Of a stretch of DNA of 61,645 nt, positions 3,991 to 59,899 are shown piece after piece. A program made the translations under genes and the position numbers. Under the pieces are notes generated by a model. The model did not search any database and had not been told where the DNA came from. It saw only the letters and a program-made list of their open reading frames with translations. The stretch is from Bdellovibrio sp. (GTDB lineage: Bacteria > UBA10199 > 2-02-FULL-44-16 > DYJF01): positions 1 to 61,645 of the forward strand of contig DYJF01000003.1 of the NCBI GenBank assembly GCA_020723205.1, given 5' to 3'. The stretch's first letter is position 1. Every line of letters begins with the position of its first letter.

Positions 3991-4057
3991 GTGTAGAAGT
4001 GTAGGAGTGTAGAAGTCAGTTAGTATCAATGACCCCGGCACTCCAGACTTCTGCACT
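3991..4057 (+). repeat. Hairpin element between thrS and infC; copy 2 of the 19-mer
   Basis: 3991-4009 is identical to 2178-2196. It pairs with 4039-4057 (19 positions, 3 mismatches or wobbles) around a 29-nt loop. Confidence 0.75.
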
Positions 4058-4085
4058 TTAGCGCTGTTTTAAAAGGAGGTGCTTT

Positions 4086-4622: not shown

Positions 4623-4643
4623 GAATAGAAAAGGAGAGAGACA

Positions 4644-4841: not shown

Positions 4842-4855
4842 TAAGGAGGATCTAA

Positions 4856-5206: not shown

Positions 5207-6231
5207 TAGAAGAGATGATGAAAAAAATAGAAGCCGTCCGCGATGAGGCGATGAAGGAGGTCGCCTTCGTCAGCGACGCCGGCTCTGCGGAGAAGTGGCG
5301 CGTCAAGTATCTCGGGCGCAAGGGGGCAGTCCCGGCGCTCCTGACGGAGATGGGCTCTCTCGAGGCCGCCGAACGCCCCGTGATCGGCCGGCAGATCAAT
5401 GATCTCAAGGTGGTACTGACCGACGAGATTGAACGCTGCATAGGGTCGTTCGCGAAAATGGGGCAGGAGTCCGCCATCGCAAGGGAGCGCATAGATATAA
5501 CGCTTCCCGGCCGCGTTATAATTCCGGGCAACCGCCATCCGATAAGGCAGACGATGGACTATGTCGTGGACATATTCACCGGCATGGGTTTTTCCGTCTT
5601 TGAAGGCCCGGAGATCGAGAGCGACTATTACAATTTCGAGGCCTTGAACGTTCCCAAGGACCATCCCGCGCGCGATATGCAGGACACCTTCTACGTGGAC
5701 GGTGACTCGCTCCTTCGCACGCATACGTCCCCGGTGCAGATCCATGTGATGGAATCGCACAGGCCGCCGGTGTTCATGATCGCACCCGGGGCTGTCTACA
5801 GACGGGACAGCGACGTTTCGCACTCGCCTATGTTCTATCAGGTGGAGGGATTGATGGTCGACGAGCACATAACGTTTAAGGACCTGAAGGGCGTGCTCAC
5901 GACCTTCTGCAGAAAAGTCTTCGGAGAAAAGCACGGCGTACGTTTCAGGCCCAGCTTTTTCCCGTTCACGGAGCCGTCGGCCGAAGTGGACATCTCATGC
6001 GTGATGTGCGGCGGGACTGGCTGCCGTGTCTGCAAGATGAGCGGGTGGATGGAGATATTGGGATGCGGAATGGTCGATCCGGAGGTCTTCAAGGCGGTGA
6101 AGTACGATCCAAAGAAGCTGACCGGTTTCGCCTTCGGGGTCGGCATAGACCGCGTCGCGATGCTTCTCTACGGCATCAACGACATTCGGCTTTTTTATGA
6201 GAACGATTTGAGATTTTTGGAGCAGTTCTAA
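5203..6231 (+). CDS. pheS: Phenylalanyl-tRNA synthetase alpha subunit
   Basis: 342 aa with class II motifs (HPARDMQDTFY, FRPSFFPFTEPS, GFAFGVGIDR). ATGA overlap with rplT. Confidence 0.95.
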   Translation: MIEEMMKKIEAVRDEAMKEVAFVSDAGSAEKWRVKYLGRKGAVPALLTEMGSLEAAERPVIGRQINDLKVVLTDEIERCIGSFAKMGQESAIARERIDITLPGRVIIPGNRHPIRQTMDYVVDIFTGMGFSVFEGPEIESDYYNFEALNVPKDHPARDMQDTFYVDGDSLLRTHTSPVQIHVMESHRPPVFMIAPGAVYRRDSDVSHSPMFYQVEGLMVDEHITFKDLKGVLTTFCRKVFGEKHGVRFRPSFFPFTEPSAEVDISCVMCGGTGCRVCKMSGWMEILGCGMVDPEVFKAVKYDPKKLTGFAFGVGIDRVAMLLYGINDIRLFYENDLRFLEQF

Positions 6232-8291
6232 TGCGAGTTTCACTCGATTGGATAAAAGAGTTCGTCGATCCGAAGCTTCCTCCCGGAAAGCTCGCGGACG
6301 TCCTTACAATGGGCGGGCTTGAGGTCGAGGAGATGGAGAAGATCGGCGAAGATACGATATTTGAGCTCGGGATCACCCCCAACAGGGGCGATTGCCTCTC
6401 GGTGATCGGCGTCGCCCGCGAGATCGCAACGCTTTTGAAGAGGAACCTGCGCCTGCCCAAGGAGAAGAAGATCAAGGGGAGGGGGCGCATGCGCGATTTC
6501 ATAAACGTTTCTGTCAAGTCGCCCCTCGCGTGTCCGCGTTACACCGCGCGCGTCATCGACGGCGTCAAGATCGGGCCGTCGCCCGGCTGGATGGTGAGGA
6601 TGCTTGCCGCGTGCGGTATAAGGTCCATCAACAACGTCGTAGATGCGACGAACTATGTGATGCTTGAAACGAACCAGCCGCTGCACGCTTTCGATCACAG
6701 GTTCATCAGGGGCAAAAGGATCATCGTTTCCAATCCCCGCGGTCCTCTCGATTTCGTGACGCTGGACGGCGGGACGCAGAAAATAATCCCCTCTGATCTT
6801 CTGATATGCGACGGGGAAGGGCCGGTGGCTCTGGCCGGCGTCATGGGCGGGAAGAACTCGGAGGTCTCTGACGATACGACGACGGTCGTGCTAGAGAGCG
6901 CATATTTCGAGCCCTCGTCCGTGCGCCGTACGGCGAGGCGATTGGGTCTCGCGTCGGAATCTTCAAGGAGGTTCGAACGCGGCGTGGATCCCACGGGAAC
7001 CCTGCTGGCGCTCAACCGTTTGACGGAGATCATCCTGGAGACGGCGGGCGGCACGGCCACCGCCGACTGGGTGGACATAAATCCGAAAAAATTCGTTCCC
7101 AAGAGGGTCAAGCTCGAGGCGAAGGAGATAGGGAGGGTCTTGGGGATCGAGATAAAGCTGCCGGAGGCGAGAGCGATCCTGTCGCGTCTCGGCATGAAGT
7201 GCGGCGCGCCTGCGAAAGGGGCCATGAGCGTGGCGGTCCCCGCTTTCAGGCCGGATGTAACGCGTCAGATAGACCTGATAGAAGAGCTTGCCCGTCTCTA
7301 CGGTTACCACAGAATAGACGAGACGATGCCGTCCGCCACCATAGAGCCGATAGTCAGGCCGCGTTTCGTTTTGCAGGAACGCGCGGCGCGCGAAGCGCTC
7401 ATCGGCTGCGGATTGACGGAGGCGGTCACAATGGGTTTCTCCGATCCGCGCGATCTTGAGCCGTTCTCGTCGTTTTTGCCGGCGCCGATAGGAATAACCA
7501 ATCCGCTCTCGTCGGAGGAATCGGTCATGCGCACGATGCTCCTTTCCGGGCTTCTGCGCGCGCTGGCGGTCAGCGTCAGCCGTCAGCGCTATGACGTGCG
7601 CCTCTTCACGGCCGGGAACGTATATCTGAGGCCGCAGGGCGGGAAGCAGGAGGAGCCGCTCCATCTCGCGGGCGTTCTCTTTGGAAAGCGCCGCGTTCAG
7701 AGCTGGGAGGCGGCAAAAGAGATGGTCGATTTTTATGACGTCAAGGGAGCGGTCGAGGCCGTGCTCAAGTCGCTGGGGCTCTCGAAGCAGGCCGTCTGGC
7801 AGCGCGCCGATGATCACGAGTTCCTGCATCCGGGGCGTTCCGCCGTCCTCCTGGTGGGCAACCGCAGGGTCGGCTTCGCGGGGCAGCTCCATCCGGAGAT
7901 AGCTGCGAAGTGGGACATACCGGGCGAGTGTTTCGTGTTTGAACTGGAGTTCGAGAACCTCGCGCAGATGTCTTTGACGGAAAAGCCGCAGTTCTCCGAG
8001 CTCTCGAAGTTCCCGTTCGTTGAACGGGATGTCGCGATACTTGTGGACGATAAGATACCTTCCGTCGAGGTGCTCAAGGTCATACAGAACTCGGGAGTCT
8101 CGCTTGTTGCGGATGTGCGTCTCTTTGACGTCTACCGCGGCAAAGGGATAGAGGGCGGCAGGAAGAGCATCGCATACACGATAAGATACGCGTCGCCCGA
8201 ACGCACGCTGACCGACGAAGAGGTGAACAGCGCGCATCAAACGATAGTGAGGGCGCTCGAAACGAAATTGAACGCCGTTCTAAGAACATAA
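6231..8291 (+). CDS. pheT: Phenylalanyl-tRNA synthetase beta subunit (short form without the N-terminal OB-fold tRNA-binding domain)
   Basis: 686 aa. The B1 start (MRVSLDWIKEFV) joins directly to ELGITPNRGDCLS. B3/4, B5 and FDX-ACB-like regions are recognisable. 1-nt overlap with the pheS stop. Confidence 0.9.
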   Translation: MRVSLDWIKEFVDPKLPPGKLADVLTMGGLEVEEMEKIGEDTIFELGITPNRGDCLSVIGVAREIATLLKRNLRLPKEKKIKGRGRMRDFINVSVKSPLACPRYTARVIDGVKIGPSPGWMVRMLAACGIRSINNVVDATNYVMLETNQPLHAFDHRFIRGKRIIVSNPRGPLDFVTLDGGTQKIIPSDLLICDGEGPVALAGVMGGKNSEVSDDTTTVVLESAYFEPSSVRRTARRLGLASESSRRFERGVDPTGTLLALNRLTEIILETAGGTATADWVDINPKKFVPKRVKLEAKEIGRVLGIEIKLPEARAILSRLGMKCGAPAKGAMSVAVPAFRPDVTRQIDLIEELARLYGYHRIDETMPSATIEPIVRPRFVLQERAAREALIGCGLTEAVTMGFSDPRDLEPFSSFLPAPIGITNPLSSEESVMRTMLLSGLLRALAVSVSRQRYDVRLFTAGNVYLRPQGGKQEEPLHLAGVLFGKRRVQSWEAAKEMVDFYDVKGAVEAVLKSLGLSKQAVWQRADDHEFLHPGRSAVLLVGNRRVGFAGQLHPEIAAKWDIPGECFVFELEFENLAQMSLTEKPQFSELSKFPFVERDVAILVDDKIPSVEVLKVIQNSGVSLVADVRLFDVYRGKGIEGGRKSIAYTIRYASPERTLTDEEVNSAHQTIVRALETKLNAVLRT

Positions 8292-13866: not shown

Positions 13867-13893
13867 GCAACCTTTCGGGACGCGCGGCGATAA
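13867..13893 (+). promoter_or_regulatory. Alternative-sigma-type promoter motif, copy 1 of 4 (GCAACCT-N13-GCGATAA)
   Basis: Same architecture and spacing as the sites at 36712, 50417 and 51859. Ends 12 nt before the ATG at 13906. Confidence 0.45.
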
Positions 13894-13905: not shown

Positions 13906-14463
13906 ATGAAGGCCACTTACTACGATATCCTTGGGGTCAGCCCCGCGGCGTCGAACGACATAATCCACGCCGCATACCGCGCCCTCATGCTCAAGGACAA
14001 AAAACATCCCGATCTGGGCGGCGATCCCGAGGAGGCGAAGGCGATAAACGAGGCCTACTCGGTTCTCAAGGACGCCGAAAAACGCACAAAGTACGATTCG
14101 AGGATAGGGAAAACGTCCTTCTGGAAGTTCTGGGAAAGGGCGGCCCCGCAGACGAACGAGCGCCGCCGCGCGGTCCGCACCGCGGGCAGCTCCACGGTCT
14201 CCTTCTGTATGAACCATGATACGCGCTGGAACGTCGCGCGCGTGAAGGACTATTCCGTCATAGGTTGCCGCATTGTCTCGCATGAGCCGGTCAAAAAGAA
14301 CGAATCCGTGGTCATCTCCTGCACGAACACCGCATCGGCGGTCGTGCACGGCAAGGTCCGCTGGGTGCGCATGTATTGTCCCTCAATATTCGAAAGGGTG
14401 TACGAGGCCGGTATTGAGTTCGACCAGCCGATACACGACATCGCGCAGCGTCTATCGATTTAA
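13906..14463 (+). CDS. J-domain (DnaJ-like) protein fused to a PilZ-type domain
   Basis: N-terminus YYDILGV…HPD…AYSVL is a J domain. The C-terminus carries RRAVR (RxxxR) and, 22 residues later, DYSVIG (DxSxxG), the PilZ c-di-GMP-binding motifs. Confidence 0.7.
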
Positions 14464-26708: not shown

Positions 26709-26725
26709 GCCACGAATCCTAATCG

Positions 26726-26742
26726 TAATCTTAATCGCTTTT
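26726..26742 (+). repeat. 17-nt direct repeat, copy 1 (TAATCTTAATCGCTTTT)
   Basis: Identical 17-mer at 27777-27793. A related inverted version lies at 29460-29486. Confidence 0.8.
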
Positions 26743-27711: not shown

Positions 27712-27776
27712 GAGCAACGGCAATATAACTATTTATTTTTAGCCATTTACGGGTGGGTCAAGTGCAGGTGGCAATC

Positions 27777-27793
27777 TAATCTTAATCGCTTTT
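27777..27793 (+). repeat. 17-nt direct repeat, copy 2 (TAATCTTAATCGCTTTT)
   Basis: Identical to 26726-26742. Confidence 0.8.
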
Positions 27794-29459: not shown

Positions 29460-29486
29460 GCGATAAAAAGCGATAAAAAAGCGATT
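29460..29486 (-). repeat. Inverted, reiterated version of the AATCGCTTTT boundary motif
   Basis: The plus strand reads GCGATAAAAAGCGATAAAAAAGCGATT. The reverse complement, AATCGCTTTTTTATCGCTTTTTATCGC, resembles 27783-27799 (AATCGCTTTTATCGCC). Confidence 0.55.
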
Positions 29487-29533
29487 CAGAATGGCATTGA
29501 CACTCAACCAGTATTGAAGCTACTTCAGCCCTG

Positions 29534-32500
29534 ATGCAGCACTCGCCCTTCGTACATCTGCACCTGCATACATATTACAGCCTTCTCGACGGCGCCATCC
29601 CCATCGAGGCGCTGGCTCTGCGCGCAAAAGAGCTCAAAATGCCCTCGGTCGCCATGACCGATCACGGCAACCTCTTCGGCGCCATCGAGTTCTACGAAAA
29701 GATACAAAGGCACGGGATAAAGCCCATAATCGGCTGCGAGGCCTATGTCGTTACGAAGGGCTCGAGAAAGGACAGGGGCGGCCAGTTGGAGGGCTTCACG
29801 TCCCATCTGGTCCTTTTGTGCAAGAATAGGGCTGGTTATAGGAACCTCTGCCGTCTGATAAGTTCAAGTTATTTAGAAGGGTTCTATTATAAACCACGAA
29901 TAGATAAAGATCTATTGCGTGAGCATAATGAGGGACTGATCGCACTGTCGGGTTGCCTCAAAGGAGAGATATCAAGGGCGCTTTTTGAGGACCGGATGGA
30001 GGACGCCAGGGCCGCAGCCCTTGAGTACGCCTCCATATTCACGAACGACCGTTTCTTTTTGGAGCTTCAGGATCAGGGTCTGGAAGGGCAGGCAAAGGTC
30101 AGAAAAGGGATCATGGAGCTGGCGAGAGGGACGGGGCTGCCGCTCGTTGCCACGAACGATGTGCATTATCTTTCGAGGGAGGATTCATCCGCGCAGGACG
30201 CGCTTCTTTGCATACAGACGGGAACGACCATAGACGCGAAGGACCGCCTGCGCCTTATGAGCGACCAGTTCTATTTGAAGTCGCATGACGAGATGGCCTC
30301 TCTCTTCAGCGATTGTCCCGAGGCGATATCGAACACCATGGCGGTCGCGGAGCGGTTGAATCTGGACTTCGATTTCAAGACCTACCATTTTCCGAAGTTC
30401 GTACCGCCGGAAGGCGTGGACCTCGCCAATTATCTGGAGCAGCAGGCGAGGGACGGCTTGAAGAGGCGCTGGTCCTCCATCGTCGCGGTCCAGAAGAAAG
30501 ACGAGGAGACGCTCAAGGCGGAATACGAGGCGCGACTGGTGGAGGAGCTCTCGCTCATCAAGACGATGGGTTTTGCCGGATATTTCCTCATCGTCGCCGA
30601 CTTCATCGGTTTCGCAAAGACGAAGAACATTCCTGTGGGCCCCGGACGCGGCTCCGCGGCCGGCTCGCTCGTCGCCTATTGCCTCAATATAACGGACATA
30701 GATCCCTTGGTGCACGGACTTCTCTTCGAGCGTTTCCTGAACCCGGAGCGCATCAGCATGCCCGACATGGACATAGACTTCTGCATGCGCCGCCGCGACG
30801 AGGTCATAAGATACGTCGCGGAAAAATACGGCAATGTCTCGCAGATAATAACGTTCGGAAAGATGAAGGCGAGGGCGGTCGTGCGCGACGTGGGCCGCGT
30901 GATGGGCATGGCCTACGGTGAGGTGGACCGCATCGCCAAGCTCATCCCCGCGACGCTCAACATGACGCTCGCACAGGCCCTCGAGATAGAGCCGAAGCTC
31001 AAGGACGAGGTGAAGAGATCGCAGGAAGTGAAGCGCATGATAGAGATCGCGCGCTCGCTTGAGGGTTTTCCGCGCCATGCGTCCACTCACGCGGCGGGCG
31101 TCGTCATCTCCGACAAGCCGCTCTCCGAGTTCCTGCCGCTGTATCTCGGCCAGCACGATGAAATAGTGACGCAGTTCGACATGAAGGCGGTCGAGAAGGT
31201 AGGCCTCGTCAAGTTCGACTTTCTGGGCCTCAAGACGCTGACCGTCATTGACGATGCGGTGAGACAGATCGAAAAACGGCACGGCATAAAAGTGGGAATA
31301 GACACGCTTCCGTTCGACGATCCGCTCGTCTATTCGGAACTGTCGCACGGCGACACCGCCGGCGTCTTCCAGCTCGAAAGCTCCGGCATGACCGACCTCG
31401 TGATGCGTTTGAAGCCCAGCGTCTTCGCTGACCTGGTCGCTCTGGTCGCGCTTTTCCGCCCGGGTCCCTTGGGCAGCGGCATGGTGGACGATTTCATAAA
31501 CCGCAAGCACGGCAAGACGCCCATCAGGTACGAGCTTTTGCAGCTCGAGCCGATACTCAAAGACACGTACGGCGTCATCGTCTATCAGGAACAGGTGATG
31601 CAGATAGCGAACCGCTTGGCGGGGTTCTCGCTGGGAGAGGCGGACATACTGCGCCGCGCGATGGGAAAGAAGAAGGCCGAGGAGATGGCCAAGCAGAAGG
31701 AGCGCTTCATCGGCGGCTGTGTCGCGAACAAGATATCAAGGGCGAGGGCCGAGCGGCTCTTCGATCTTATAGCGAAATTCGCCGAATACGGGTTCAACAA
31801 ATCTCATAGCGCGGCGTACGCGCTGGTCGCCTACCAGACCGCGTATCTCAAGTTCCATTATCCGACCGAGTTCATGGCCGCGCTGCTCACCACTGAAAAG
31901 GACAACGCGGACAAGATCCTGCAGTACATCGGCGACTGCAAATCGAGGGCGATAAAGATCCTGCCGCCGGACGTCAACGAGAGCGGCCGCGATTTTTCCG
32001 TCGTCGCCGACAACACGATCCGCTTTGGACTCGCCGCCGTGAAGAACGTGGGTGAGGCGGCCATCGACAGCGTCGTTGCGGTAAGAGAGGCGGCGGGGCC
32101 CTTCACGTCGCTGTTCGACTTCTGCGAGAGGGTGGATTCAAGAAAGGCCAACAAGCGCGTGATAGAATCGCTCATCAAATGCGGGGCGTTCGATTTTGCG
32201 GGAGCCCCCCGCGCCGCGATGTTCACATCGCTCGACCGCGCCATGGACATGGCGTCCTCGCATCAGCGCGACAGGCAGACCGGCCAGGCGCGGATATTCG
32301 ACCTGATGGGCGAAAGATCGCAAACGCCCGAGAAGCTCGAAGATGTTCCCGAGTGGCAGGAGCGCCAGCTTCTGGCCTTCGAAAAAGAGTCGCTGGGGTT
32401 TTACATCACCGGCCATCCGCTCGCGCGGTTCGAGACGATGCTCGCGCAGTATGCCAACTTCGACACGTCCACGGTGGCCTCCGCCAAGGACAAGCAGGAG

Positions 32501-32995
32501 GTCAGGATGGGCGGCGTCTGCGCCAAGCTCAAGGAGATAACCACGAAGCGGGGCGACCGCATGGGATTCGTGACGCTCGAGGACCTGAAAGGGTCCGCGG
32601 AGATCATCGTCTTCTCCGACGTCTATACCGCGAGCCACCTTCTCATAAAGGGGGAGCGGCCGTTCTTCGTCATCGGACAGGCGGACACGGACGGCGAGAC
32701 GGTCAAGATCATTGCGCGCCAGATATTACCGCTGGAAGAGGCGCCGGAACATTTGACCAAGAGCATACATTTCATCCTGCACGCGCCGGAAGTGACGGCA
32801 AAACATATCGCCCAACTCAAGAACGTGCTGGGGCGTTTTCCCGGAAAATGCCCCGGCTTCGTGCACTTGGTTTCGCCCAATAAGACGGAAACTGTGCTTG
32901 CCCTGCCCGACGATTTAAAGCTTGTTCCGACGCCGCAACTTGTGGCATCAGTGGAAAAACTATTCGGTCACAATGTCACGAGATTCATCTCCTAA
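29534..32995 (+). CDS. dnaE: DNA polymerase III alpha subunit
   Basis: 1153 aa. PHP domain start (FVHLHLHTYYSLLDG), polymerase core (…DIDFC…, GLVKFDFLGL) and a C-terminal OB fold. Confidence 0.95.
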   Translation: MQHSPFVHLHLHTYYSLLDGAIPIEALALRAKELKMPSVAMTDHGNLFGAIEFYEKIQRHGIKPIIGCEAYVVTKGSRKDRGGQLEGFTSHLVLLCKNRAGYRNLCRLISSSYLEGFYYKPRIDKDLLREHNEGLIALSGCLKGEISRALFEDRMEDARAAALEYASIFTNDRFFLELQDQGLEGQAKVRKGIMELARGTGLPLVATNDVHYLSREDSSAQDALLCIQTGTTIDAKDRLRLMSDQFYLKSHDEMASLFSDCPEAISNTMAVAERLNLDFDFKTYHFPKFVPPEGVDLANYLEQQARDGLKRRWSSIVAVQKKDEETLKAEYEARLVEELSLIKTMGFAGYFLIVADFIGFAKTKNIPVGPGRGSAAGSLVAYCLNITDIDPLVHGLLFERFLNPERISMPDMDIDFCMRRRDEVIRYVAEKYGNVSQIITFGKMKARAVVRDVGRVMGMAYGEVDRIAKLIPATLNMTLAQALEIEPKLKDEVKRSQEVKRMIEIARSLEGFPRHASTHAAGVVISDKPLSEFLPLYLGQHDEIVTQFDMKAVEKVGLVKFDFLGLKTLTVIDDAVRQIEKRHGIKVGIDTLPFDDPLVYSELSHGDTAGVFQLESSGMTDLVMRLKPSVFADLVALVALFRPGPLGSGMVDDFINRKHGKTPIRYELLQLEPILKDTYGVIVYQEQVMQIANRLAGFSLGEADILRRAMGKKKAEEMAKQKERFIGGCVANKISRARAERLFDLIAKFAEYGFNKSHSAAYALVAYQTAYLKFHYPTEFMAALLTTEKDNADKILQYIGDCKSRAIKILPPDVNESGRDFSVVADNTIRFGLAAVKNVGEAAIDSVVAVREAAGPFTSLFDFCERVDSRKANKRVIESLIKCGAFDFAGAPRAAMFTSLDRAMDMASSHQRDRQTGQARIFDLMGERSQTPEKLEDVPEWQERQLLAFEKESLGFYITGHPLARFETMLAQYANFDTSTVASAKDKQEVRMGGVCAKLKEITTKRGDRMGFVTLEDLKGSAEIIVFSDVYTASHLLIKGERPFFVIGQADTDGETVKIIARQILPLEEAPEHLTKSIHFILHAPEVTAKHIAQLKNVLGRFPGKCPGFVHLVSPNKTETVLALPDDLKLVPTPQLVASVEKLFGHNVTRFIS

Positions 32996-36711: not shown

Positions 36712-36738
36712 GCAACTTCCTGATCTTTCTGCCGAAAA
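36712..36738 (+). promoter_or_regulatory. Alternative-sigma-type promoter motif, copy 2 of 4 (GCAACTT-N13-CCGAAAA)
   Basis: Lies in the AT-rich intergenic region, 27 nt before the ATG at 36766. Followed by GTGAGGGAGCA (36756-36766), an 11-mer also found at 51892-51902. Confidence 0.5.
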
Positions 36739-50416: not shown

Positions 50417-50443
50417 GCAACTTTTCAGACCCCCGACCGAAAA
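50417..50443 (+). promoter_or_regulatory. Alternative-sigma-type promoter motif, copy 3 of 4 (GCAACTT-N13-CCGAAAA)
   Basis: Ends 9 nt before the ATG at 50453, so the transcript would be leaderless or nearly so. Confidence 0.45.
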
Positions 50444-50452
50444 GGGGGGAGG

Positions 50453-51766
50453 ATGACCACACTGGAAAGGACATACAGCAGCATCAACCATTATAAGGGC
50501 TCGTTACTCCCCATATACGAAGAGGTCTGCGGCGATACCGCGACCTATCCGGGTGTCGAGGACGGTTTCGAGCGCTATCTTTCGCGCACGCAGTTTGAAC
50601 AGCCCCAAAGTGTAGACGTCAAATACCTCACTGCAGCGCCCGCCGACGCTGCGGCCGTCTTCCAAAAATTTCTGGGTGGCGGCAAGAACTGCCCCGACGG
50701 ATCGCTTCGCGGGCGGGCCCGCATGAACGCCTTATCGCTCAGCAGCGCGGCCAGAGGCAGCGTGGCTCAGGGGTCCGACGGGAGCGTCGTTTACGTTCCG
50801 GATCTCGCTTCGCTCTATCTCGCGTGGCAGCGTTTTCTCCCGGAATATCTTCAAAACATCTGGGCCGCTCACGCCGCTGTCGAAAGGTACATGGACGATC
50901 CGAACCTCGATCTCATGACGCTGGCCGAAATACGGAGGGCGGCGGGCCGCTCCGAGATAATGGCCTCGGAAATGTATAATGAGGTGGTCCCGCTCATGAA
51001 ATCCTTTAGGGATCGCTCGTGGCAGTGGATCTCCGCCGCATCCCAGTTCGCCAAGATCAATAACTTCCGGTCGCTGGTCCTGCTCTTGCTGGAGAGTGGT
51101 CGATCGGGGCCGTCCTTCGAAGAGGACCTTGAGTTCTATGCCGGCACGTTCATGTCGGCGGTGCGAGGTCTCCGTGATCCCTTCGACTGGGTGAAGAGGG
51201 TCACGGATGACGTGATCAAGGTGGTAGCGCCCAACGTCCGGTTGCGATGGCCCAAGGAAACGCCCGTAATCGAAACCGCGGATCCGCACACGTTCTACCG
51301 TCTCCTTGACCAGATCACCGCTTGGGTGGTCGAGAGCTCTTTCGGCAGGGAGGGATACGTTCTGGAGTTCAAGTGGGACGGTTTTAAAAAGAGATTCGTT
51401 GCGATAGTGCCCTCTGCGACCGAGCCGCCTCTCGTGGTGCGACACCTCTTGGAGCGTCTGAAAGGGGAGTTCACGCTCGACAAAGAGGCCGGCACCGTCT
51501 GGCTAAGCGTGCCGGTCAAGGTCATATCTAAGCCGTCATCCCCCGTGAACGGGGACAGCGGCGGCGGTAGCGGGCCAGAAGGCGACGAGCCGGTCCCCGT
51601 TGTGAACGGCCTGGCGACGGCCGGCGAATCGTTGTTGCCGGTTCAAGGCGCCCTGCAGGCCAACTTCCGCGGCGGTGCGAGCTTCTTCGGTATGGCGCGG
51701 CCGCAGCAATTCATACTCATACCGCAGCATTTGAACACGTTCCCCCTCTCGCCCGCCGTTCAATAA
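50453..51766 (+). CDS. Hypothetical protein D (437 aa); C-terminal third weakly resembles a degenerate GHKL/HATPase-like fold, followed by a Gly/Pro linker and a tail related to protein A
   Basis: Long ORF with no clear family. …ADPHTFYRLLDQITAWVVES…VLEFKWDG…FVAIVPS…GTVWLSVPV is reminiscent of a histidine-kinase ATPase-domain layout without the G-boxes. Confidence 0.55.
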   Translation: MTTLERTYSSINHYKGSLLPIYEEVCGDTATYPGVEDGFERYLSRTQFEQPQSVDVKYLTAAPADAAAVFQKFLGGGKNCPDGSLRGRARMNALSLSSAARGSVAQGSDGSVVYVPDLASLYLAWQRFLPEYLQNIWAAHAAVERYMDDPNLDLMTLAEIRRAAGRSEIMASEMYNEVVPLMKSFRDRSWQWISAASQFAKINNFRSLVLLLLESGRSGPSFEEDLEFYAGTFMSAVRGLRDPFDWVKRVTDDVIKVVAPNVRLRWPKETPVIETADPHTFYRLLDQITAWVVESSFGREGYVLEFKWDGFKKRFVAIVPSATEPPLVVRHLLERLKGEFTLDKEAGTVWLSVPVKVISKPSSPVNGDSGGGSGPEGDEPVPVVNGLATAGESLLPVQGALQANFRGGASFFGMARPQQFILIPQHLNTFPLSPAVQ

Positions 51767-51858
51767 ATACGACAAATTCATCGTAATATATACTTATGAT
51801 ACAGTGTATTATAAGCGATATATAAGGTTATACCTTAGATCGTTCCAGACGAAAAAAG

Positions 51859-51885
51859 GCAACTTTTACGACTTTTTGCCGAAAA
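51859..51885 (+). promoter_or_regulatory. Alternative-sigma-type promoter motif, copy 4 of 4 (GCAACTT-N13-CCGAAAA)
   Basis: Lies in the AT-rich intergenic region, 49 nt before the ATG at 51935. Followed by GTGAGGGAGCA at 51892-51902. Confidence 0.5.
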
Positions 51886-51934
51886 TAATCGGTGAGGGAG
51901 CAAAAGGGGGAGTTTCATCGATCGGGGAGCAAAA

Positions 51935-52360
51935 ATGTCAGTAAATCCTGTAGAGATCATTAACAAGTGGATGGGAACGCATTTCGGAGGGAGTTCGGAC
52001 GTCGTCCTTGACTGTCCGGAGGCGGCGGTGGAGTGCGATGAAGCGGTCCTCGAGTGCTCGGTCCAAAGCGATGTGGCGGCGGGCAATGTCTGTGTGTTCA
52101 CGAACGAAGCCGGCGTGTCGCCCACGACCATTGATATCTTCCGCTCGGACGGCCAGACGAGGCGGTTCCTCATCAATCCCGCCTTTCTGACCATGTCCTT
52201 TGAAGAGCGTGTTGATCATATGACCCCCGTTCGGCCGGAACTGTTCGAAGACGATATATCCGAAAAAGTGGCTGGCGCGCATAGGGACATAGAGTTCGCA
52301 TCGTTCTTCGACAGCTATCTCAAGCCGGTTGCGACATTCGCCGGATTTCTCTTGCAGTAG
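51935..52360 (+). CDS. Hypothetical protein E (141 aa)
   Basis: GGGGAGcaaaaATG start. Small acidic protein with no family recognised. Confidence 0.55.
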   Translation: MSVNPVEIINKWMGTHFGGSSDVVLDCPEAAVECDEAVLECSVQSDVAAGNVCVFTNEAGVSPTTIDIFRSDGQTRRFLINPAFLTMSFEERVDHMTPVRPELFEDDISEKVAGAHRDIEFASFFDSYLKPVATFAGFLLQ

Positions 52361-52378
52361 GGCGCATTGCTGATAGGT

Positions 52379-52600
52379 ATGAGTAGCGACGAAGAACCGG
52401 AAGCGCACGCGGCTCCTCAATATCCGCACGAGTTTCCCGCGGACGGAGGCGACGGCGCGGTTCTGGACCATCTTTCAGTGGAAACTGCAGAGCCGGAGCC
52501 GGTAGCAACAGCAATTGAAGAGGACAGGCCAAGGCGAAGGGTCAGCCATCTCCCGTCAGGTTATTCAGCGGATGGCGAAGTTTTAAGATATCTCCCCTAG
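52379..52600 (+). CDS. Hypothetical small acidic, probably disordered protein F (73 aa)
   Basis: This is the only ORF filling the gap between E and G on the same strand. Composition is E/D/P/A-rich. The start is uncertain (52367 or 52379). Confidence 0.35.
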   Translation: MSSDEEPEAHAAPQYPHEFPADGGDGAVLDHLSVETAEPEPVATAIEEDRPRRRVSHLPSGYSADGEVLRYLP

Positions 52601-52607
52601 CACTACT

Positions 52608-53177
52608 ATGGAACTTCTAGGCAAAGTATCAAAGGTCGATTGCGATGTCACGCCCGCCTCGCAGCGGTTGTCGGTATCCCTCTACAAGCTCGTCTGCGGC
52701 AATGACGGAGCGTACGCCTATGTCGACGAGGTCGCCGGTGCTCTTCTCGCCGACCAGCGCTTCGCGGAGGTGCAGATCATCAATGAGATGCTGATGAAGG
52801 ACGCGTATGCGGGCGCGTACTACAGGTCGTTCGGCGAAGAGGCGCTTGTCGTACTTGATTGCGCGCGGGCCTTCGGCGGCATCTGCGTCATCAATCCGTG
52901 GAACGAAACGTTCATTCATATCACGACATTTCGTCCGAGGTCCGGCCACATACGGGACGAGATATGGATGCAGCCATGGTATTTTCTTGAGAACCAAACC
53001 CCTACTTTTGAGATCGAGGGAGATATGAACCAGTCCGTTCTCAACGCCGCATCAATGGTAGTGGAGTCCCGCTATTACTTTGACCATCCCGAAGCGAGGC
53101 CCCCCGAAACGCCGGACGCCGGGCAGGACGCCGGCGGCCAGAGCGCCGTTGACCGCATATTCTCCTATGGCCGTTGA
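52608..53177 (+). CDS. Hypothetical protein G (189 aa)
   Basis: ORF with coding-like composition, same strand, 7 nt after F. No family recognised. Confidence 0.5.
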
Positions 53178-54530: not shown

Positions 54531-57134
54531 GTGAACCTTGCCCCCCAGATATCCTGTATGAGCGGTTTTGCGGCCGCCGGTAACATGGCGGCCTTCAATG
54601 CGGCGTGGTTCGCTGTGAGAACGAATGTGCTGGCGCCCATGGGCCTTGCCGCAGAGCAGCTTGGTGTTCCGCTTTCTCCGCCTGATAATTTCGCTTTGGC
54701 CGTCGATATGAGGAACAAAGTGATGGACGGTCTGCGTCCCCATCTCGACCGGCAGATCGTCCGCTTTGTCGACTCGCATCAGCCGCTGACCTCAGAAACG
54801 TTCGAAAGCGAGGGATTCGAGGGCCCCGTGGGGGCGGTCCTGTTGGCGGACAGGGTCTATGATCACGGTGTCGTTTCCTTCGATCCAGCGAAGATGTTCA
54901 TCGCCTCCGCGCTGATGCTCCTGGACAGAAGTCCAGTTGCGATCTCGCATGTTCCTCTCAAGTACGGTTCGCGCGGTCTTGAAGGTTACCGGTACACATA
55001 TCATCCGATGGAGGAGATGCGCATCCAGACGGAGATCGACAGATTGAGAGTGGATGAGGGGTCCTTGGACCTCGTAAGGATACCCCACATATCACGCGGC
55101 GCGCTGCTGAGGATCATCGAACAGCTCGCCAGGGCGCATGATCTCTTTCATCCGCGCCTTCTGAAGCTGAAGAATTTCGAGGCCGGTTTGCAGGGCTGGA
55201 ATGCTCATGTGTATGGACTGTACAAATTCTATTGGAATCTTCTCCTGCAAGAGGGGGCCTTGGGCCACATCGTCGATTTCATGCTCGACGACCTGAGCGT
55301 TGAGAGACCGGAGCAGCTATCTCTGGCCGAGCAAGCGAGAATTCTGGGGCTGACCCATGCAAAGATCAAGTGGGATCGGGTGAGCCCTCAACTTAAGGCC
55401 TATCTGCTTTTCAGGCTGGCGGAAGAGGCCGGTGTGGTGCATCCGAGATTTTTGACCGTCGACCATTTCAGAGACCATGAGATAGAGGAATTGGGTTCCA
55501 CTCTTACAGGTCTATACCGTAATCATAGCGTACGCATAAAGGAACCCGGGAGAGCGGTGGAAGCCGCTCTCGACGATGCGGGTGTTACGCCCCTTGAGAA
55601 CCTGCCGTGGGACGTGCAGCTCACCGGGCTCAGGCAGCGCGGTTTCATCAAATGGGACATAGTGCCGCTGTCGACGCAACGGCAGTTGCTGGAGACGGCG
55701 AGGGATTCGATGCCGGCCAAGAACGGTCTGAAGTGTCCGCATGTTCGCGTGCTCAACACGGCCTTGCTGAAGAATCTCGTCCTCGAGGGAATAGGCGTGA
55801 GTCTGGCGGGCCTGCTTGCTCATTACGAGGGTCAGATGCCCCCCGACTACGACGGGACGGTTCGTGATTTCATGCTGGACCGGCTTGGTGTCGAAAAGTT
55901 CGAAGAGCTTCCTTACGAACTGCAGTGTCGTTGCCTGCGATATGATATCCGGTCATGGGACAGGATGCCGCGGGCGTTGATCTTAAGATTCATGGAGAGG
56001 CTGCAAGAGATACACGGTCTGCCGCACGTTAGATTCGTTTCCAGCCAACAGATGCAAAGAACCATCATACCCGAGCTCGGCCAGCGCCTCGATGGTCTTT
56101 ATCATCGCTTTCGCGTCACAAAAAGGGAAGATGACACGAGGGAGATCGTCGACATAGTTCTGGATCACGTCGGCGCTCCCAAGTTCAAAGAAATGCCATT
56201 GGATCTCCAGCTTCAATGGACGCAGCGGCCCAACGTCAAGATAACGACTTGGCGGCGCGTACCTGAAGGAGTGATCCGTCATTATCTTCTTGAGACGATG
56301 AGGGGGGCCGGCGTCAGAACGCCTGATGATATATTCGAACGGCATTTTCATATGAGGGCCGGCGGCAAAGATACGAAGCTCGTAGGTCTGTACAATTATC
56401 TCAGGAGCGTGCGGTCGGCCCTTGGCGTGGATCAGAGGACGGTCGACTGGGCGTTTCAGCGCTACGGCGTGATGCAGTTCAGTATGCAGGCGAAGCGGAG
56501 CGCCGGGGCGCGGCTCCTGGAACGGGATGAGAAGAGATTTCTCCTCCGCATCGCGAAGATGGGCGACAGAGCGGCGATGGATCATCTGGTCCACTTTTAT
56601 CGCCCCCTCATAGAGAGCATTGCCCGACGCGTCCTGGCCAGATGGCCCGCTTCGCGTCTGACGATCGACGAGCTCGTCCAAGCGGGGCGGATAGGGTTTG
56701 CAAAGATAGTGGAGCTCCACGATCCGGCGAGGGCAAGTCTTGAGACTCACGTGAAGAGCTCTCTTCCAAGGCGGCTCATGAACGCTATCCGGCTGGCCGG
56801 CGGATCGAAGGAGGTGTCATTGTTCGATCCGATGAGCGCCGATGAGGACGGACTTACTTATGAAAGCGTCATCGAAGACGTTGGAACGACGCGCGCTGAT
56901 AGCGATATCGGTGATGCGGAGCTGAGAGAATATGTCTACATGGCGATGGGATCTTCCGGTCTCAATGAGGATGAAAGATTCGTTCTGATACAGAGGGGGC
57001 TTGAGGGCCATACGTTGGAGGAGGTCGGACGGATGCTCGATCTAAGTAGAGAGAGGATCAGGCAGCTGGCCGAATCAGCTATGAGAAAGATCGCAAATGG
57101 ACCTTACGCTGCGGTCTTGAAAGAACTGCTATGA
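54531..57134 (+). CDS. Giant sigma-70-family protein S1: repeat-containing N-terminal region of about 640 aa + sigma region 2-like + region 4 (region 3 segment absent)
   Basis: C-terminus …GDRAAMDHLVHFYRPLIESIA…DELVQAGRIGF…LNEDERFVLIQRGLEGHTLEEVGRMLDLSRERIRQLAESAMRKI, with a canonical region 4.2 HTH. The GTG at 54531 aligns with the Met1 of paralog S2. The ATG at 54558 is an alternative start. Confidence 0.7.
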   Translation: MNLAPQISCMSGFAAAGNMAAFNAAWFAVRTNVLAPMGLAAEQLGVPLSPPDNFALAVDMRNKVMDGLRPHLDRQIVRFVDSHQPLTSETFESEGFEGPVGAVLLADRVYDHGVVSFDPAKMFIASALMLLDRSPVAISHVPLKYGSRGLEGYRYTYHPMEEMRIQTEIDRLRVDEGSLDLVRIPHISRGALLRIIEQLARAHDLFHPRLLKLKNFEAGLQGWNAHVYGLYKFYWNLLLQEGALGHIVDFMLDDLSVERPEQLSLAEQARILGLTHAKIKWDRVSPQLKAYLLFRLAEEAGVVHPRFLTVDHFRDHEIEELGSTLTGLYRNHSVRIKEPGRAVEAALDDAGVTPLENLPWDVQLTGLRQRGFIKWDIVPLSTQRQLLETARDSMPAKNGLKCPHVRVLNTALLKNLVLEGIGVSLAGLLAHYEGQMPPDYDGTVRDFMLDRLGVEKFEELPYELQCRCLRYDIRSWDRMPRALILRFMERLQEIHGLPHVRFVSSQQMQRTIIPELGQRLDGLYHRFRVTKREDDTREIVDIVLDHVGAPKFKEMPLDLQLQWTQRPNVKITTWRRVPEGVIRHYLLETMRGAGVRTPDDIFERHFHMRAGGKDTKLVGLYNYLRSVRSALGVDQRTVDWAFQRYGVMQFSMQAKRSAGARLLERDEKRFLLRIAKMGDRAAMDHLVHFYRPLIESIARRVLARWPASRLTIDELVQAGRIGFAKIVELHDPARASLETHVKSSLPRRLMNAIRLAGGSKEVSLFDPMSADEDGLTYESVIEDVGTTRADSDIGDAELREYVYMAMGSSGLNEDERFVLIQRGLEGHTLEEVGRMLDLSRERIRQLAESAMRKIANGPYAAVLKELL

Positions 57135-59899
57135 ATCTTGCCTCTCAGATATCCTGTATGAGCGGTTTTGCGGCCGCCGGTAACATGGCGGCCTTCAATG
57201 CGGCGTGGTCCGCCGTGAGCGTCAACGTCCTGCCGGCCATGGGCCTTGGCGTGGAGCAGCTCGGTGTTCCGCTTTCTCCTCCTGACAACTTTGCGCTAGC
57301 CGCCGATATGAGGAATAGGGTGATCGAAGGTGTGCGTCCGGCTCTCGACCAGCAACTTACGCGTTTCGTCGACACGCACCAGCCGCTCACTTCCGAAACG
57401 TTCGAAAGCGAAGGGTTCGAAGGTCCCGTGGGGGCGATCATGCTGGCGGACAAGGTCTATGATCACAATGTTGTTTCCTTCGATCCCGCAAAGATGTTCA
57501 TAGCATCTGCTCTGACGTTAGTGGAGAGAAGCCCTGTTGCCATCTCACATGTTCCCCTCAAATACGGCTCGCGCGGTCTTGAAAGTTACCGGTACACATA
57601 TCATCCGATGGAAGAGATGCGCATCCAGGCGGAGATCGACCGCTTGAGGGTCGAGGAGAAACCGTTAGGTTTCAGGAGGATCCCGCACCTCTCGCGAGGT
57701 GTGCTGATAAGGATCATCGAACAGATCGCAAAAGCGCACGGTTTGCCTCATTTGCGGCTGCTTGGTCGGGATAATTTCAGGACCAGGATGCCCGGCTGGA
57801 AGGCGCAGGTACAGGGATTATATAAGTTCTATCGTGATATCCTGCCCGAAGGAGAGAACGCGGGCCGTATAGTCGATTTCATGCTCGACAGTCTGGGGGT
57901 TCAGAGATTTGACGAGCTGTCCTTGTCGGATCAGGCAAGATATTTAAGATTACGATATTCAAGGATCAACTGGGACATCGTAGGCCACCAACTCAAAGAA
58001 TATCTCCTCTTTCGTCTTGCCGAGGAGGCGGGCGTCGTGCATCCGCGTTTTCTGACCAGCGATCATTTCAGGGAATTCGAGATAGAGGAGTTGGGCTCCA
58101 CACTGATCGGTCTATACGATAACTATAAGGCGCGCTTGAAGGAACATGGCAGAGTCGTGGAGGCCATCCTCAACGACGCGGGCGTTGCCTCTTTTGAGAG
58201 CTTGGCCTGGGACGTCCAGCTCAAGGGGCTGGGAGAGCGCGATAATGTCAAATGGGACGTCGTGCCGGCGTCGACGCAGCTCAAATTGCTGGAGATCGCT
58301 AAAGAGCGGATGCCTGTGAAGAACGGCTTGAAATGTCCGCATCTGCGCGTGCTTATCGCCGATCAGTTGAAAGTGCTCGTGATCGGGGAGATAGAAGTGA
58401 GTCTGGGTGGGCTGTATGAACGTTACAGACGCAAGCTGCCGGAAGATAACGAAGACACGATCCTTGATTTCATGCTGGATCGGCTGGGTGTGGAAAGATT
58501 AGAAGACCTTCCCTATGAGTTGCAGTGCCTTTGTTTAAGATACGATGAAAAGCGGCCGTGGAACAGGGTGCCTGCGTCCTTGATACTGAAATTCATTGAG
58601 AGGTTGAGGGAGATCAACGATCTGCCTCACGTGAGATTCGTTTCAGCTGAACAGATGCAGACGACGATCATACCGGAGATCGGCCAATCCCTGGGCGGTC
58701 TTTACCATCATTTTCTTTTGAGGAAGAGGGCGGACGATCACAGGGAGATCGTCGATATCATTCTTGACCATACCGGCGCTCCCGGATTCGAGGAGATGCC
58801 GCTCCGCCTTCAACTCCAATGGACGCAGCAGCAGTCCGGCAAGCTGGCAAGCTGGCGGCGTATGCCCGAAGGAGTGATCCGTTACTATCTCTTTGAGGTG
58901 ATGAGAGCGGCGGGAGTCAGAAGATGTGATGATCTGTTGCAGCGACATTTTCGCTTGAGAGTCGGTGGCAAGAAAACGGCATTAATGGGTCTGTACACAT
59001 ACCTTGGTAATTTACGGGCCGGCACGGGTGAAAATGCCAGGACGATCGACTGGGCGTTCTCGCGCTACGGCATGGACGTGCAATTCAGCGTGGAGGCCAA
59101 GCGCAGCGGCGGCGGGAAGATGCTGGACCAGAGAGAGAAGATGTTCCTGATGGAGATGGCGAAGATGGGCGACAGAACGGCCACGGATCACCTGATCTTT
59201 TTCTATCAGCCGCTCATTGCGAGCATCGTATACGGTTTCAGGTCGAGGGCAGGGGGATCGCGTTTAACGATGGATGAGCTGCTCCAGTTTGCACGCATAG
59301 AATTCTCTACGTTGCTAGGACTCTACGATCCGACTCTTGGCAGTTTTGAGACATACGTAAAAAGTTCACTTCCCTGGCGGGTCTTAACTGCGATCAAACG
59401 GTCCGGCAGAACGATACATCTTCCAGTGTATTATGTAGATTTTATGCGGCAGGTCGGCAGGGTGCGCCGGCAATTATTGGGGAGACTGGAGCGCGATCCT
59501 TCGGATGAGGAACTGGCCGGAGCCCTCGGCGTGACCGTCGATACACTAAAGGACAGGCAGTCGCGCTTCACGACAGAAGTCTCTCTATTCTCTCCACTGG
59601 GAGGAGATGATGACGAATTCACATATGAAAGCGTGATAGAGGATGTTAACGCGCTTCGTCCCGATAATGAGTATCTGGATACGGACATGCGAGAATTGAT
59701 TGAGCAGGCGATAAACGGCTCGGGGCTGAATGAGAAAGAAAAGATCGTCATGACGCAAAGGGGGTTTGGAGATCGTACGCTTGAGGAAGTCGGTCAGATG
59801 CTCGATCTAAGTAGAGAGAGGATCAGGCAGCTGGCCCAATCGGCCATGAGAAAGATCGCAGAAGGTCCCTATGCCGAGATCTTGAAAGAGATCCTCTGA
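57131..59899 (+). CDS. Giant sigma-70-family protein S2: repeat-containing N-terminal region of about 640 aa + sigma regions 2, 3 and 4
   Basis: Paralog of S1, roughly two-thirds identical by eye. C-terminus has region 2 (…DHLIFFYQPLIASI…), RTIHLPVYYVDFMRQVGRVRRQLLGRLERDPSDEELAGALGV (regions 2.4/3) and region 4 (TLEEVGQMLDLSRERIRQLAQSAMRKI). ATGA overlap with S1. Confidence 0.75.
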   Translation: MNLASQISCMSGFAAAGNMAAFNAAWSAVSVNVLPAMGLGVEQLGVPLSPPDNFALAADMRNRVIEGVRPALDQQLTRFVDTHQPLTSETFESEGFEGPVGAIMLADKVYDHNVVSFDPAKMFIASALTLVERSPVAISHVPLKYGSRGLESYRYTYHPMEEMRIQAEIDRLRVEEKPLGFRRIPHLSRGVLIRIIEQIAKAHGLPHLRLLGRDNFRTRMPGWKAQVQGLYKFYRDILPEGENAGRIVDFMLDSLGVQRFDELSLSDQARYLRLRYSRINWDIVGHQLKEYLLFRLAEEAGVVHPRFLTSDHFREFEIEELGSTLIGLYDNYKARLKEHGRVVEAILNDAGVASFESLAWDVQLKGLGERDNVKWDVVPASTQLKLLEIAKERMPVKNGLKCPHLRVLIADQLKVLVIGEIEVSLGGLYERYRRKLPEDNEDTILDFMLDRLGVERLEDLPYELQCLCLRYDEKRPWNRVPASLILKFIERLREINDLPHVRFVSAEQMQTTIIPEIGQSLGGLYHHFLLRKRADDHREIVDIILDHTGAPGFEEMPLRLQLQWTQQQSGKLASWRRMPEGVIRYYLFEVMRAAGVRRCDDLLQRHFRLRVGGKKTALMGLYTYLGNLRAGTGENARTIDWAFSRYGMDVQFSVEAKRSGGGKMLDQREKMFLMEMAKMGDRTATDHLIFFYQPLIASIVYGFRSRAGGSRLTMDELLQFARIEFSTLLGLYDPTLGSFETYVKSSLPWRVLTAIKRSGRTIHLPVYYVDFMRQVGRVRRQLLGRLERDPSDEELAGALGVTVDTLKDRQSRFTTEVSLFSPLGGDDDEFTYESVIEDVNALRPDNEYLDTDMRELIEQAINGSGLNEKEKIVMTQRGFGDRTLEEVGQMLDLSRERIRQLAQSAMRKIAEGPYAEILKEIL

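Follow-up and report, generated by a model that had tools for sequence, protein, structure and literature searches.

A rare family of giant sigma-70-type proteins with an ordered, repeat-containing N-terminal region in uncultured bacteria

Two adjacent genes on a 61,645-nucleotide (nt) stretch of DNA from an uncultured bacterium deposited as Bdellovibrio sp. (contig DYJF01000003.1 of assembly GCA_020723205.1, positions 1 to 61,645 of the forward strand; hereafter the window) encode giant proteins that end in a sigma-70-family module. Copy 1 (54531..57134, forward strand) specifies 867 amino acids (aa) from a GTG codon at 54531 and comprises a head, a conserved helix, five repeats, sigma regions 1.2-2, a region 3.2 linker and region 4; copy 2 (57131..59899, forward strand) specifies 922 aa from an ATG codon and comprises a head, the conserved helix and five repeats ahead of sigma regions 1.2-2-3-4. 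Judged from their sequences, both genes are functional, are transcribed together and belong as paralogs to a rare alternative sigma-70-type family. A preliminary description of the window had reported tandem giant sigma-70-family paralogs of about 867 and 922 aa at this position; both open reading frames (ORFs) are as described, and our profile, structure-prediction and fold searches agree with it.

We propose that these proteins act as alternative sigma factors that read a bipartite promoter-like motif and drive a private regulon of orphan genes, and that the repeat array would serve as a built-in regulatory or partner-binding element. We estimate the probability of this reading, which draws on sequence comparison, at about 0.5. 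The evidence for it comes from the sigma module, from the N-terminal region and its distribution, and from the association of the motif with the giant sigma genes.

The C-terminal module is a diverged group-3-like or RpoS-like sigma factor

The sigma-70-family module occupies the last ~210-260 aa of each giant protein. In copy 2 it spans aa 661-922 (59111..59896, forward strand), with region 1.2/2 at about aa 664-760, region 3 at aa ~762-845 (nt ~59414-59665) and region 4 at aa 865-909 (nt 59723-59857). In copy 1 it spans aa 659-867 (56505..57131, forward strand), with region 2 at aa 687-754 (nt 56589-56792) and region 4 at aa 810-854 (nt 56958-57092). Region 4 is recognized in both copies by Pfam Sigma70_r4 (PF04545; 45.5 bits for copy 1 and 47.2 for copy 2, cut-off 24.1), and region 3 is recognized by Sigma70_r3 (PF04539; 39 bits, cut-off 25.3) in copy 2 only. 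The Sigma70_r2 model (PF04542) scores 21.4 bits in copy 1, below its cut-off of 24, with no match reported for copy 2, but the generic NCBIfam sigma-70 model TIGR02937 exceeds its cut-off of 42.9 in both copies (57.1 and 62.5 bits). Models of RpoS, SigB, RpoD and FliA align across regions 1.2 to 4.2 of copy 2, and SigA, HrdB and RpoS chains in the PDB match by sequence over the same span at 1e-18 to 1e-23. An AlphaFold model of the whole of copy 2, with a predicted local distance difference test score (pLDDT) of 80.6, matched sigma chains only in Foldseek, at 1e-8. Region 2 is probably present, to judge from TIGR02937, the full-length models, the PDB chains and Foldseek; it is the most diverged part of the module.

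We aligned copy 2 with Escherichia coli sigma-70, taking the residue numbers of the latter, including the W433/W434 dyad, to mark the positions that read the -10 element and melt the promoter. The region 4.2 helix RERIRQ of copy 2 is identical to that of sigma-70, the RTIHLPV junction is kept, and so are the equivalents of Q406 and Y430; W433/W434 are replaced by S-S, Q437 by W, T440 by L and R441 by T. Relative to copy 2, copy 1 has a 53-aa gap at region 3.0/3.1, a domain-precise loss that leaves the 3.2-like linker (EVSLFDP...) in place.

The scores of the specific models place the proteins outside the named classes. The RpoS model gives 85 bits against an equivalog cut-off of 379, the best RpoD model 91 bits against 555, and the FliA/WhiG model (TIGR02479) 68.4 bits for copy 2 and 38.7 for copy 1 against 189.6, so that every equivalog cut-off is missed by far. 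No match to region 1.1 was found in the giant sigma proteins, and the equivalents of W433/W434 differ from those of RpoD, as noted above. The proteins also fall outside the extracytoplasmic function (ECF) class: copy 2 and most of its relatives have region 3 and a region-1.2-like segment, the best-matching models are those of RpoD, RpoS and SigB and not ECF-specific ones, and copy 1 is two-domain only through secondary loss of region 3. The sigma module is a diverged group-3-like or RpoS-like one, neither ECF nor primary. The preliminary description was right to place region 2-like and region 4 sequences at the C-terminus; the group assignment and the absence of region 3 from copy 1 are additions to it.

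The N-terminal region is a conserved helix followed by five anciently fixed repeats

The N-terminal module combines a conserved helix with five helical repeats of ~95 aa that form a rigid array and were fixed long ago; a lineage-specific head is added to it. The head of copy 2 (57131..57580, forward strand; aa 1-150) is modelled as a helical bundle at pLDDT ~85-90 and aligns with 54531-54980 (forward strand) of copy 1. A conserved head of ~150 aa had been noted before; it exists, but it is limited to the long-form homologues P0001-P0008, the ~8 closest. The helix that follows (57581..57676, forward strand; aa 151-182 of copy 2; YRYTYHPMEEMRIQAEIDRLRV), equivalent to 54981-55076 (forward strand) in copy 1, is family-wide and forms the extreme N-terminus of the short forms. 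Its consensus is YRYTYHPxEExRIQxEIDRL, in which T156, E162, R164, E168 and I169 are invariant in 13 of 13 homologues.

The repeat array of copy 2 (57677..59095, forward strand) is divided into R1 (57677-57964, aa 183-278), R2 (57965-58246, aa 279-372), R3 (58247-58552, aa 373-474), R4 (58553-58846, aa 475-572) and R5 (58847-59095, aa 573-655). In copy 1 a hidden Markov model (HMM) of the repeat finds five domains within aa 183-652 (55077..56486, forward strand). That the extension contains repeats had been proposed, and profile-profile comparison of the hand-cut units bears this out: the five are mutually homologous at hhalign probabilities of 85-99.8%, while self-comparison by BLASTP left them undetected. 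The unit follows the pattern W..VP...L, LPHxR.L, beta-hairpin, GLY..Y, D..LD.LGV and an invariant Q. In the AlphaFold model of the N-terminal region, which is confident overall (pLDDT 85.8; repeats ~85-95), each repeat folds into ~5 helices and one beta-hairpin.

The preliminary description could assign the first ~640 aa to no family, and broader searches return the same answer. The N-terminal ~650 aa have no match in Pfam, NCBIfam, PADLOC or PHROGs; residues 1-660 yield zero Pfam matches at E <= 1, with no TPR, SnoaL, WD40 or zinc-finger anti-sigma domain; and 54 single repeats searched against Pfam at E <= 10 give scattered one-off matches with no recurring family. Nothing was found for this region among PDB sequences, where the repeat profile reached a best E of 0.19, and the fold search of its model in PDB and BFVD returned nothing significant (best E 0.03, generic solenoids). 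We also considered the repeat as a cryptic sigma domain or as a copy of the head, and rejected both at hhalign probabilities of only 0.3% and 0.1%.

Across species R2 is 37-71% identical to its counterparts, whereas R2 compared with R1, R3, R4 and R5 is only 15-34% identical. Positions are thus conserved across species far above the likeness between repeats, which indicates that the array is ancient and that each unit has its own role. This position-wise conservation extends from metagenome-assembled genomes (MAGs) labelled Deltaproteobacteria or Pseudomonadota to Margulisiibacteriota, WOR-1 and Saganbacteria, implying a conserved binding partner. The net charge varies by repeat (R1 +7, R2 -7, R3 -3, R4 0, R5 +6), and many family members have an isoelectric point of ~9. 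Since the charges are mixed, the idea that the repeats are uniformly basic and DNA-binding-like is unsupported.

The family is rare and its repeat is shared with other proteins

A word-indexed search of 5.8 billion clusters recovered 13 proteins, and exhaustive searching of 1.84 billion representatives with an HMM of the single repeat recovered 90 clusters. The giant sigma family itself amounts to ~20 representative clusters among the 1.84 billion, all from MAGs or metagenomes, with 7 loci in 185,579 species genomes and 8 in 241 million metagenome records; full-length orthologues are present in at least 15 independent assemblies. The architecture is rare and confined to uncultured bacteria. 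Long forms with the head belong to the lineage of the window (GC 54-60%), and short forms occur in Margulisiibacteriota, WOR-1, Saganbacteria and other MAGs. No viral relatives were found in IMG/VR, INPHARED (tblastn), PHROGs or BFVD, and we set aside a phage or plasmid-like origin on the first three of these. Our search of the literature on large or N-terminally extended sigma factors, on repeats and on Margulisbacteria found nothing on the giant sigma family. No anti-sigma or other conserved partner gene was found among the 8 genome loci.

A large divergent group of proteins, seen in metagenome assemblies only, carries 4-6 repeats and ends in ~200 aa that escape Pfam but that profile-profile comparison identifies as sigma regions 2 and 4 (hhalign 94.4%, E 9e-8, 158 columns), making this a hidden class of sigma-like proteins. 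Its members include P0034, P0036, P0038, P0044, P0045, P0047, P0049, P0051-P0053, P0055, P0057 and others. Because this group also ends in sigma-like regions 2 and 4, the pairing of repeat array and sigma is old and recurrent.

The ~95-aa repeat is also fused N-terminally to SF1 helicases with AAA_11/AAA_12 domains (P0021, P0024-P0026, P0033 and P0056) and to a SecA-DEAD-like ATPase (P0054). It occurs within giant proteins of 2-6.5 thousand aa, two of them with sigma-like segments (P0032, P0035 and P0072 measure 5.7-6.5 thousand aa), in proteins that consist of repeats only, joined by lysine-rich linkers and with weak helix-turn-helix (HTH) matches, and in a glycosidase-like membrane protein. 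The P0021 repeat-helicase is encoded at 3629-7423 of locus L009, and a helicase fusion of Saganbacteria stands among housekeeping genes. In the P0024 helicase adjacent repeats are nearly identical, which suggests recent amplification there.

These fusions raise a different role for the array, as a nucleic-acid-binding arm that contacts DNA or RNA beyond the -35 and -10 elements or that tethers RNA polymerase (RNAP) to a nucleic-acid structure and would thus add specificity to the sigma, and not as an autoinhibitory or protein-binding module. The helicase and SecA-DEAD-like motor partners, the lysine-rich linkers and weak HTH matches, the pairing with two kinds of sigma module, the basic character of R1 and R5 and the high isoelectric points are all in keeping with it. 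R2 and R3 are acidic, however, the invariant residues look structural (W, G-L-Y, D..LD.LG and Q), no fold likeness to known DNA- or RNA-binding repeats was found, a membrane protein resembling glycoside hydrolases is among the fusion partners, and no further conserved DNA element was seen beyond the bipartite motif described below. We regard this role as unlikely, though worth holding in view; it is compatible with the regulon that we propose.

The same fusions bear on a third possibility, that the giant proteins are not initiation factors and that their sigma-like module has been re-used in some other machine, such as a defence component resembling MzaA in which the array would act as an NLR/STAND-like sensor. 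MzaA is indeed among the matches (NCBIfam NF041931 at 1.9e-19; PADLOC MzaA), and the repeats are shared with SF1 helicases of a defence-typical kind, where they look recently amplified. The MzaA match is limited to the sigma part and reaches 70 bits against 800; no Mza or other defence genes lie nearby, and the only PADLOC result for the locus as a defence island was that weak match to the sigma part. A helicase fusion stands among housekeeping genes, the five sigma-borne repeats are anciently fixed under purifying and not diversifying selection, and no phage or viral relatives exist in the databases searched. We consider this possibility quite improbable.

Both copies are under purifying selection and region 3 has been lost repeatedly

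We compared three pairs, copy 1 with copy 2 and each copy with the single-copy giant sigma gene of locus L001, by the method of Nei and Gojobori. The ratio of nonsynonymous to synonymous substitution rates (dN/dS) is 0.11-0.23 in the head, the repeats and the sigma module, and 0.13-0.23 for copy 1, which indicates that the genes are not pseudogenes. Two features could be taken as signs of pseudogenes or of an assembly or annotation artefact, namely the uncultured source organism and the ambiguous start codon of copy 1, for which GTG 54531 is the most plausible choice among in-frame options that include TTG 54387 and ATG 54558. The GTG is favored as it yields an N-terminus, VNLAPQISCMSGF, that parallels MNLASQISCMSGF of copy 2. 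With uninterrupted frames of 867 and 922 codons, this range of dN/dS, orthologues in other assemblies and confident AlphaFold models, the probability of an artefact is vanishingly small.

A full-length alignment of the copies shows 61% identity and 74% similarity, and the ATG of copy 2 overlaps the stop codon of copy 1 as ATGA (...CTGCTATGAATC...), an overlap already reported and real in the sequence. In the head (54531-54980 versus 57131-57580) dS is 0.63 and dN 0.10, compared with a dS of ~1.4 in the rest of the genes; the lower value in the head is suggestive of gene conversion between the 5' ends of the two genes. L001 shares the gene order folE, trmB, sigma, xerD with the window, and its single copy has region 3. 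The tandem duplication that was stressed initially is present here but is no family trait, since the pair is unique to the window among the family loci and L001 and all others are single-copy. The tree favors no single branching order for copy 1, copy 2 and L001; the duplication may predate the split between the window and L001, or copy 1 may just have a higher rate of evolution.

At least 4-5 separate branches of the family have lost region 3, each time with the same boundaries. A tree of the sigma module only joins copy 1 to copy 2 and L001 (P0001 and P0003), both of which bear region 3, at 95% bootstrap. An ancient paralog lineage without region 3, combined with gene conversion, was considered and rejected: copy 1 (P0002) joined the region-3-minus clade P0004-7 in 0% of bootstrap replicates.

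A bipartite promoter-like motif accompanies the giant sigma genes

The window contains a bipartite promoter-like motif, GCAACYTTT-N11-SCGAWAA, for which the chance expectation is about zero. The preliminary description had mentioned four promoters that share an alternative-sigma-type motif; all are present, and the motif tracks the giant sigma family across genomes. Two forward-strand sites score 26.2 bits: 50417..50443 (GCAACTTTT-N11-CCGAAAA) lies directly upstream of the orphan ORF 50453-51766, and 51859..51885, whose leader is conserved in L001, lies upstream of the orphans 51935-52360 and 52608-53177, which are paralogous. Two weaker forward-strand sites, 13867..13893 (GCAACCTTT-N11-GCGATAA, 21.5 bits) and 36712..36738 (GCAACTTCC-N11-CCGAAAA, 18.8 bits), are found upstream of a DnaJ-PilZ ORF (13906-14463) and of the orphan ORF 36766-38046. 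At other loci the motif is on the sigma strand at position 6806 of L001, in a leader near-identical to that of the 51859 site; at 8328 of L002, where it heads an operon of orphan and sigma genes; at 9943 of L003, 34 nt before the sigma ATG; and at 7688 of L010, ~150 nt past the sigma stop and ahead of an orphan, in a locus that lay outside the training of the matrix. All six strong sites in five long-form genomes share the strand of the sigma gene and lie no more than 4.2 kb before or 0.3 kb after it; they fall within 8% of the searched space (P ~3e-7, for an interval chosen post hoc).

At 8 of 8 short-form loci the sigma ATG follows the end of a variant, (T)GAAAT-N15/16-(C)CGAWAA, by 4-16 nt, compared with 4 of 79 other genes (Fisher P 8.5e-9, with a pattern refined post hoc). 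This spacing implies near-leaderless sigma mRNAs there, and the low count among other genes led us to reject the motif as a housekeeping promoter of these AT-rich genomes. The GAAAT variant also precedes the repeat-helicase gene in L009. Every genome examined has the motif at a giant sigma gene, whether directly before it, within the same operon or beside it.

Among the ~12 motif-driven genes none is flagellar or chemotactic, and all but the DnaJ-PilZ gene lack a Pfam family. The orphan cluster 50453-51766, 51935-52360 and 52608-53177 (forward strand) has no Pfam or PHROG family. The window proteins W_51935 and W_52608 and the L001 proteins L001_6883 (6883-7539) and L001_7550 (7550-8143) are diverged paralogs (E 1e-5 to 1e-28), to which W_50453 is weakly related. 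Although the antisense ORF 51938-52471 is longer, the likelier gene is the forward-strand ORF 51935-52360, which has a Shine-Dalgarno sequence as well as the motif. The product of 13906-14463 (forward strand) is a small fusion of a DnaJ J-domain and a c-di-GMP-binding PilZ domain, an unusual pairing.

A model for the giant sigma factors and the points that weigh against it

The tracking of the motif with the giant sigma gene across distant phyla is the classic pattern of autoregulated alternative sigma factors. We propose that the giant sigma binds the RNAP core through regions 2 and 4 and would direct it to the bipartite motif, activating its own gene in many genomes together with a small private regulon of orphan proteins. 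In the window this regulon would comprise the 50453-53177 cluster, the DnaJ-PilZ protein and ORF 36766. The N-terminal array, acting in cis, would regulate the protein or bind a partner and would take the place of a separate anti-sigma, by analogy to ECF sigmas with fused extensions (PMC8999054). It might block regions 2 and 4 as long as no partner or ligand is bound, or it might anchor the holoenzyme to a conserved macromolecule. The paralog that has region 3 and the one that lacks it probably act at different subsets of promoters, according to how far these depend on region 3 (extended -10) contacts.

The most direct alternative is that the motif is read by another sigma factor, sigma-28/FliA-like or ECF-like, that is encoded elsewhere. 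The giant sigmas would then use a different promoter and would, like the orphans, be members of the regulon of that factor. The E. coli sigma-28 consensus is TAAAGTTT-N11-GCCGATAA; the motif resembles it with the same N11 spacing, the L010 site has the exact GCCGATAA, and the -35 part contains an ECF-like AAC. One motif target is a PilZ-domain protein, and region 4.2 of the giant sigmas is sigma-70-like and not FliA-like. What this account leaves unexplained is that flagellar and chemotactic genes are absent from the motif-driven set, and that the giant sigma gene is the sole feature common to all loci, with the motif at the sigma gene in all eight short forms and in L003 and L002 and adjacent to it in the window, L001 and L010. 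On balance we hold the involvement of another sigma factor to be doubtful, though a serious contender.

Several observations weigh against our proposal. The similarity of the motif to the sigma-28 consensus means that another sigma could serve it, and the sigma-70-like RERIRQ helix predicts a TTGACA-type -35 element and not GCAAC. The sigma genes of the window, L001 and L010 have no motif directly upstream. Region 2 is weak in Pfam and its -10-reading and melting residues differ from those of sigma-70, so that with W433/W434, Q437, T440 and R441 altered, competence in promoter melting is an assumption. Both the short-form pattern and the interval taken as near the sigma gene were defined after the data had been seen. 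The mixed charge of the repeats gives no direct pointer to what the array binds.

Genomic setting

The surrounding 60 kb is core chromosome, with thrS, pheT, guaB, guaA, dnaE, dsbD, a serA-like gene, folE, trmB, a cysZ-like gene, xerD and three tRNAs; folE, trmB, the cysZ-like gene and xerD are the neighbors of the pair. The GC content of the copies (0.563 and 0.536) is slightly lower than that of the other genes (0.578 +/- 0.024). This difference, noted previously, is real but trivial and no sign of foreign origin, as folE and trmB are equally low. The closest named relatives of the window DnaE are ~70% identical and come from uncultured MAGs labelled Pseudomonadota or Deltaproteobacteria.

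Several close DnaE relatives from outside the window (P0148, P0150, P0154, P0179, P0181 and P0187) are ~1,600 aa long with intein/LAGLIDADG Pfam domains; the window dnaE (29534-32995) has no intein. Units resembling (A)TCGCTTTTT are strung together in a short tandem array upstream of dnaE (29466-29490, reverse strand), and a 17-nt element, TAATCTTAATCGCTTTT, occurs in two intergenic regions ~1 kb apart (26722-26742 and 27773-27793, forward strand).

Discussion

The giant sigmas are not categorically new, as ECF sigmas with fused and even repeat-rich extensions and large sigma-like proteins such as MzaA are known. What is new here is the combination of a non-ECF sigma, 500-650 ordered N-terminal residues, a repeat without sequence or structural relative and a candidate cognate promoter. 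The earlier claim that no described class fits therefore holds for the domain, its N-terminal position and its size, but repeat-rich fused extensions as such are established in ECFs (PMC8999054).

Like the group 2/3 sigmas (RpoS, SigB/F/G, FliA/WhiG), copy 2 aligns end to end, keeps RERIRQ and RTIHLPV and has a candidate promoter that resembles the sigma-28 type; unlike them, the giant sigmas have ~650 structured residues ahead of region 1.2 and an altered W-dyad, and copy 1 lacks region 3. The closest functional analogy is with ECF41 (SnoaL), ECF42 (TPR), ECF57 (WD40-like) and ECF238 (CorE), in which fused regulatory extensions replace anti-sigmas (PMC8999054). These share with the giant sigmas a large extension in cis, sometimes repeat-rich, without a cognate anti-sigma gene, and their extension probably assumes the sensing and regulatory role; they differ in being two-domain proteins with mostly C-terminal extensions of 70-200 aa from known domains (PMC8999054). 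In the giant sigmas the sigma module is group-3-like with region 3 ancestral, and the extension is N-terminal, 500-650 aa long and built from a repeat without a Pfam or fold match.

MzaA of the MZA anti-phage system (NF041931, PDLC02203), a system whose existence the literature confirms, is similar in layout, with ~700 aa and a C-terminal sigma-like module behind a long N-terminal region. However, only positions 543-711 of the 726 in its model align (30 bits in PADLOC), the N-terminal regions do not match, and the giant sigma genes have no MzaB-E-like neighbors and stand in a housekeeping setting.

Additions N-terminal to the sigma core are also familiar from primary sigmas. RpoD region 1.1 and its non-conserved region, and the extensions of actinobacterial SigA/HrdB and plastid sigmas, modulate DNA or core binding. 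Mycobacterium tuberculosis SigA offers one example of an N-terminal addition (PMC10011835). Such elements are short and acidic or mostly disordered, in contrast to the ~500-aa ordered array and head of the giant sigmas. The array resembles HEAT, ARM and TPR solenoids in its all-helical tandem repeats, and the weak top Foldseek matches are SF3B1, importins and condensin HEAT subunits. These matches have E >= 0.03, probability <= 0.3 and TM ~0.1, and the ~95-aa unit of about five helices and a hairpin differs from solenoid units of 2-3 helices and 34-45 aa.

Transcription in bacteria is switched mainly by sigma factors, and what is understood of their control by fused domains comes so far almost entirely from small ECFs. 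The giant sigmas are conserved in lineages without cultured members (Margulisiibacteriota, Saganbacteria and a Deltaproteobacteria-labelled lineage), and they bring with them a new protein repeat family with confident models and no structural relative. With a candidate promoter and a small orphan regulon, their function is testable in vitro without culture. Natural variants that keep or lack region 3, two of them side by side in one genome, can help to reveal the contribution of region 3 and the evolution of two-domain sigmas. If the array proves to be a switch controlled by a ligand or partner, it could also serve as an orthogonal regulatory part.

A broader reading, which we offer only tentatively and think unlikely as it stands, is that nucleic-acid machines of several kinds, namely sigma factors, SF1 helicases and a SecA-like motor, are targeted by one new and portable module, the ~95-aa repeat. 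In a sigma factor it would provide a second reading or docking arm, with recognition beyond -35 and -10 or switching triggered by a conserved macromolecule. If this were true, the giant sigmas would be self-contained 'one-component' group-3 sigmas, a mode of regulation undescribed for non-ECF sigmas, and the domain-precise losses of region 3, one of them within a tandem pair, would show in progress how three-domain ancestors give rise to two-domain, ECF-like sigmas.

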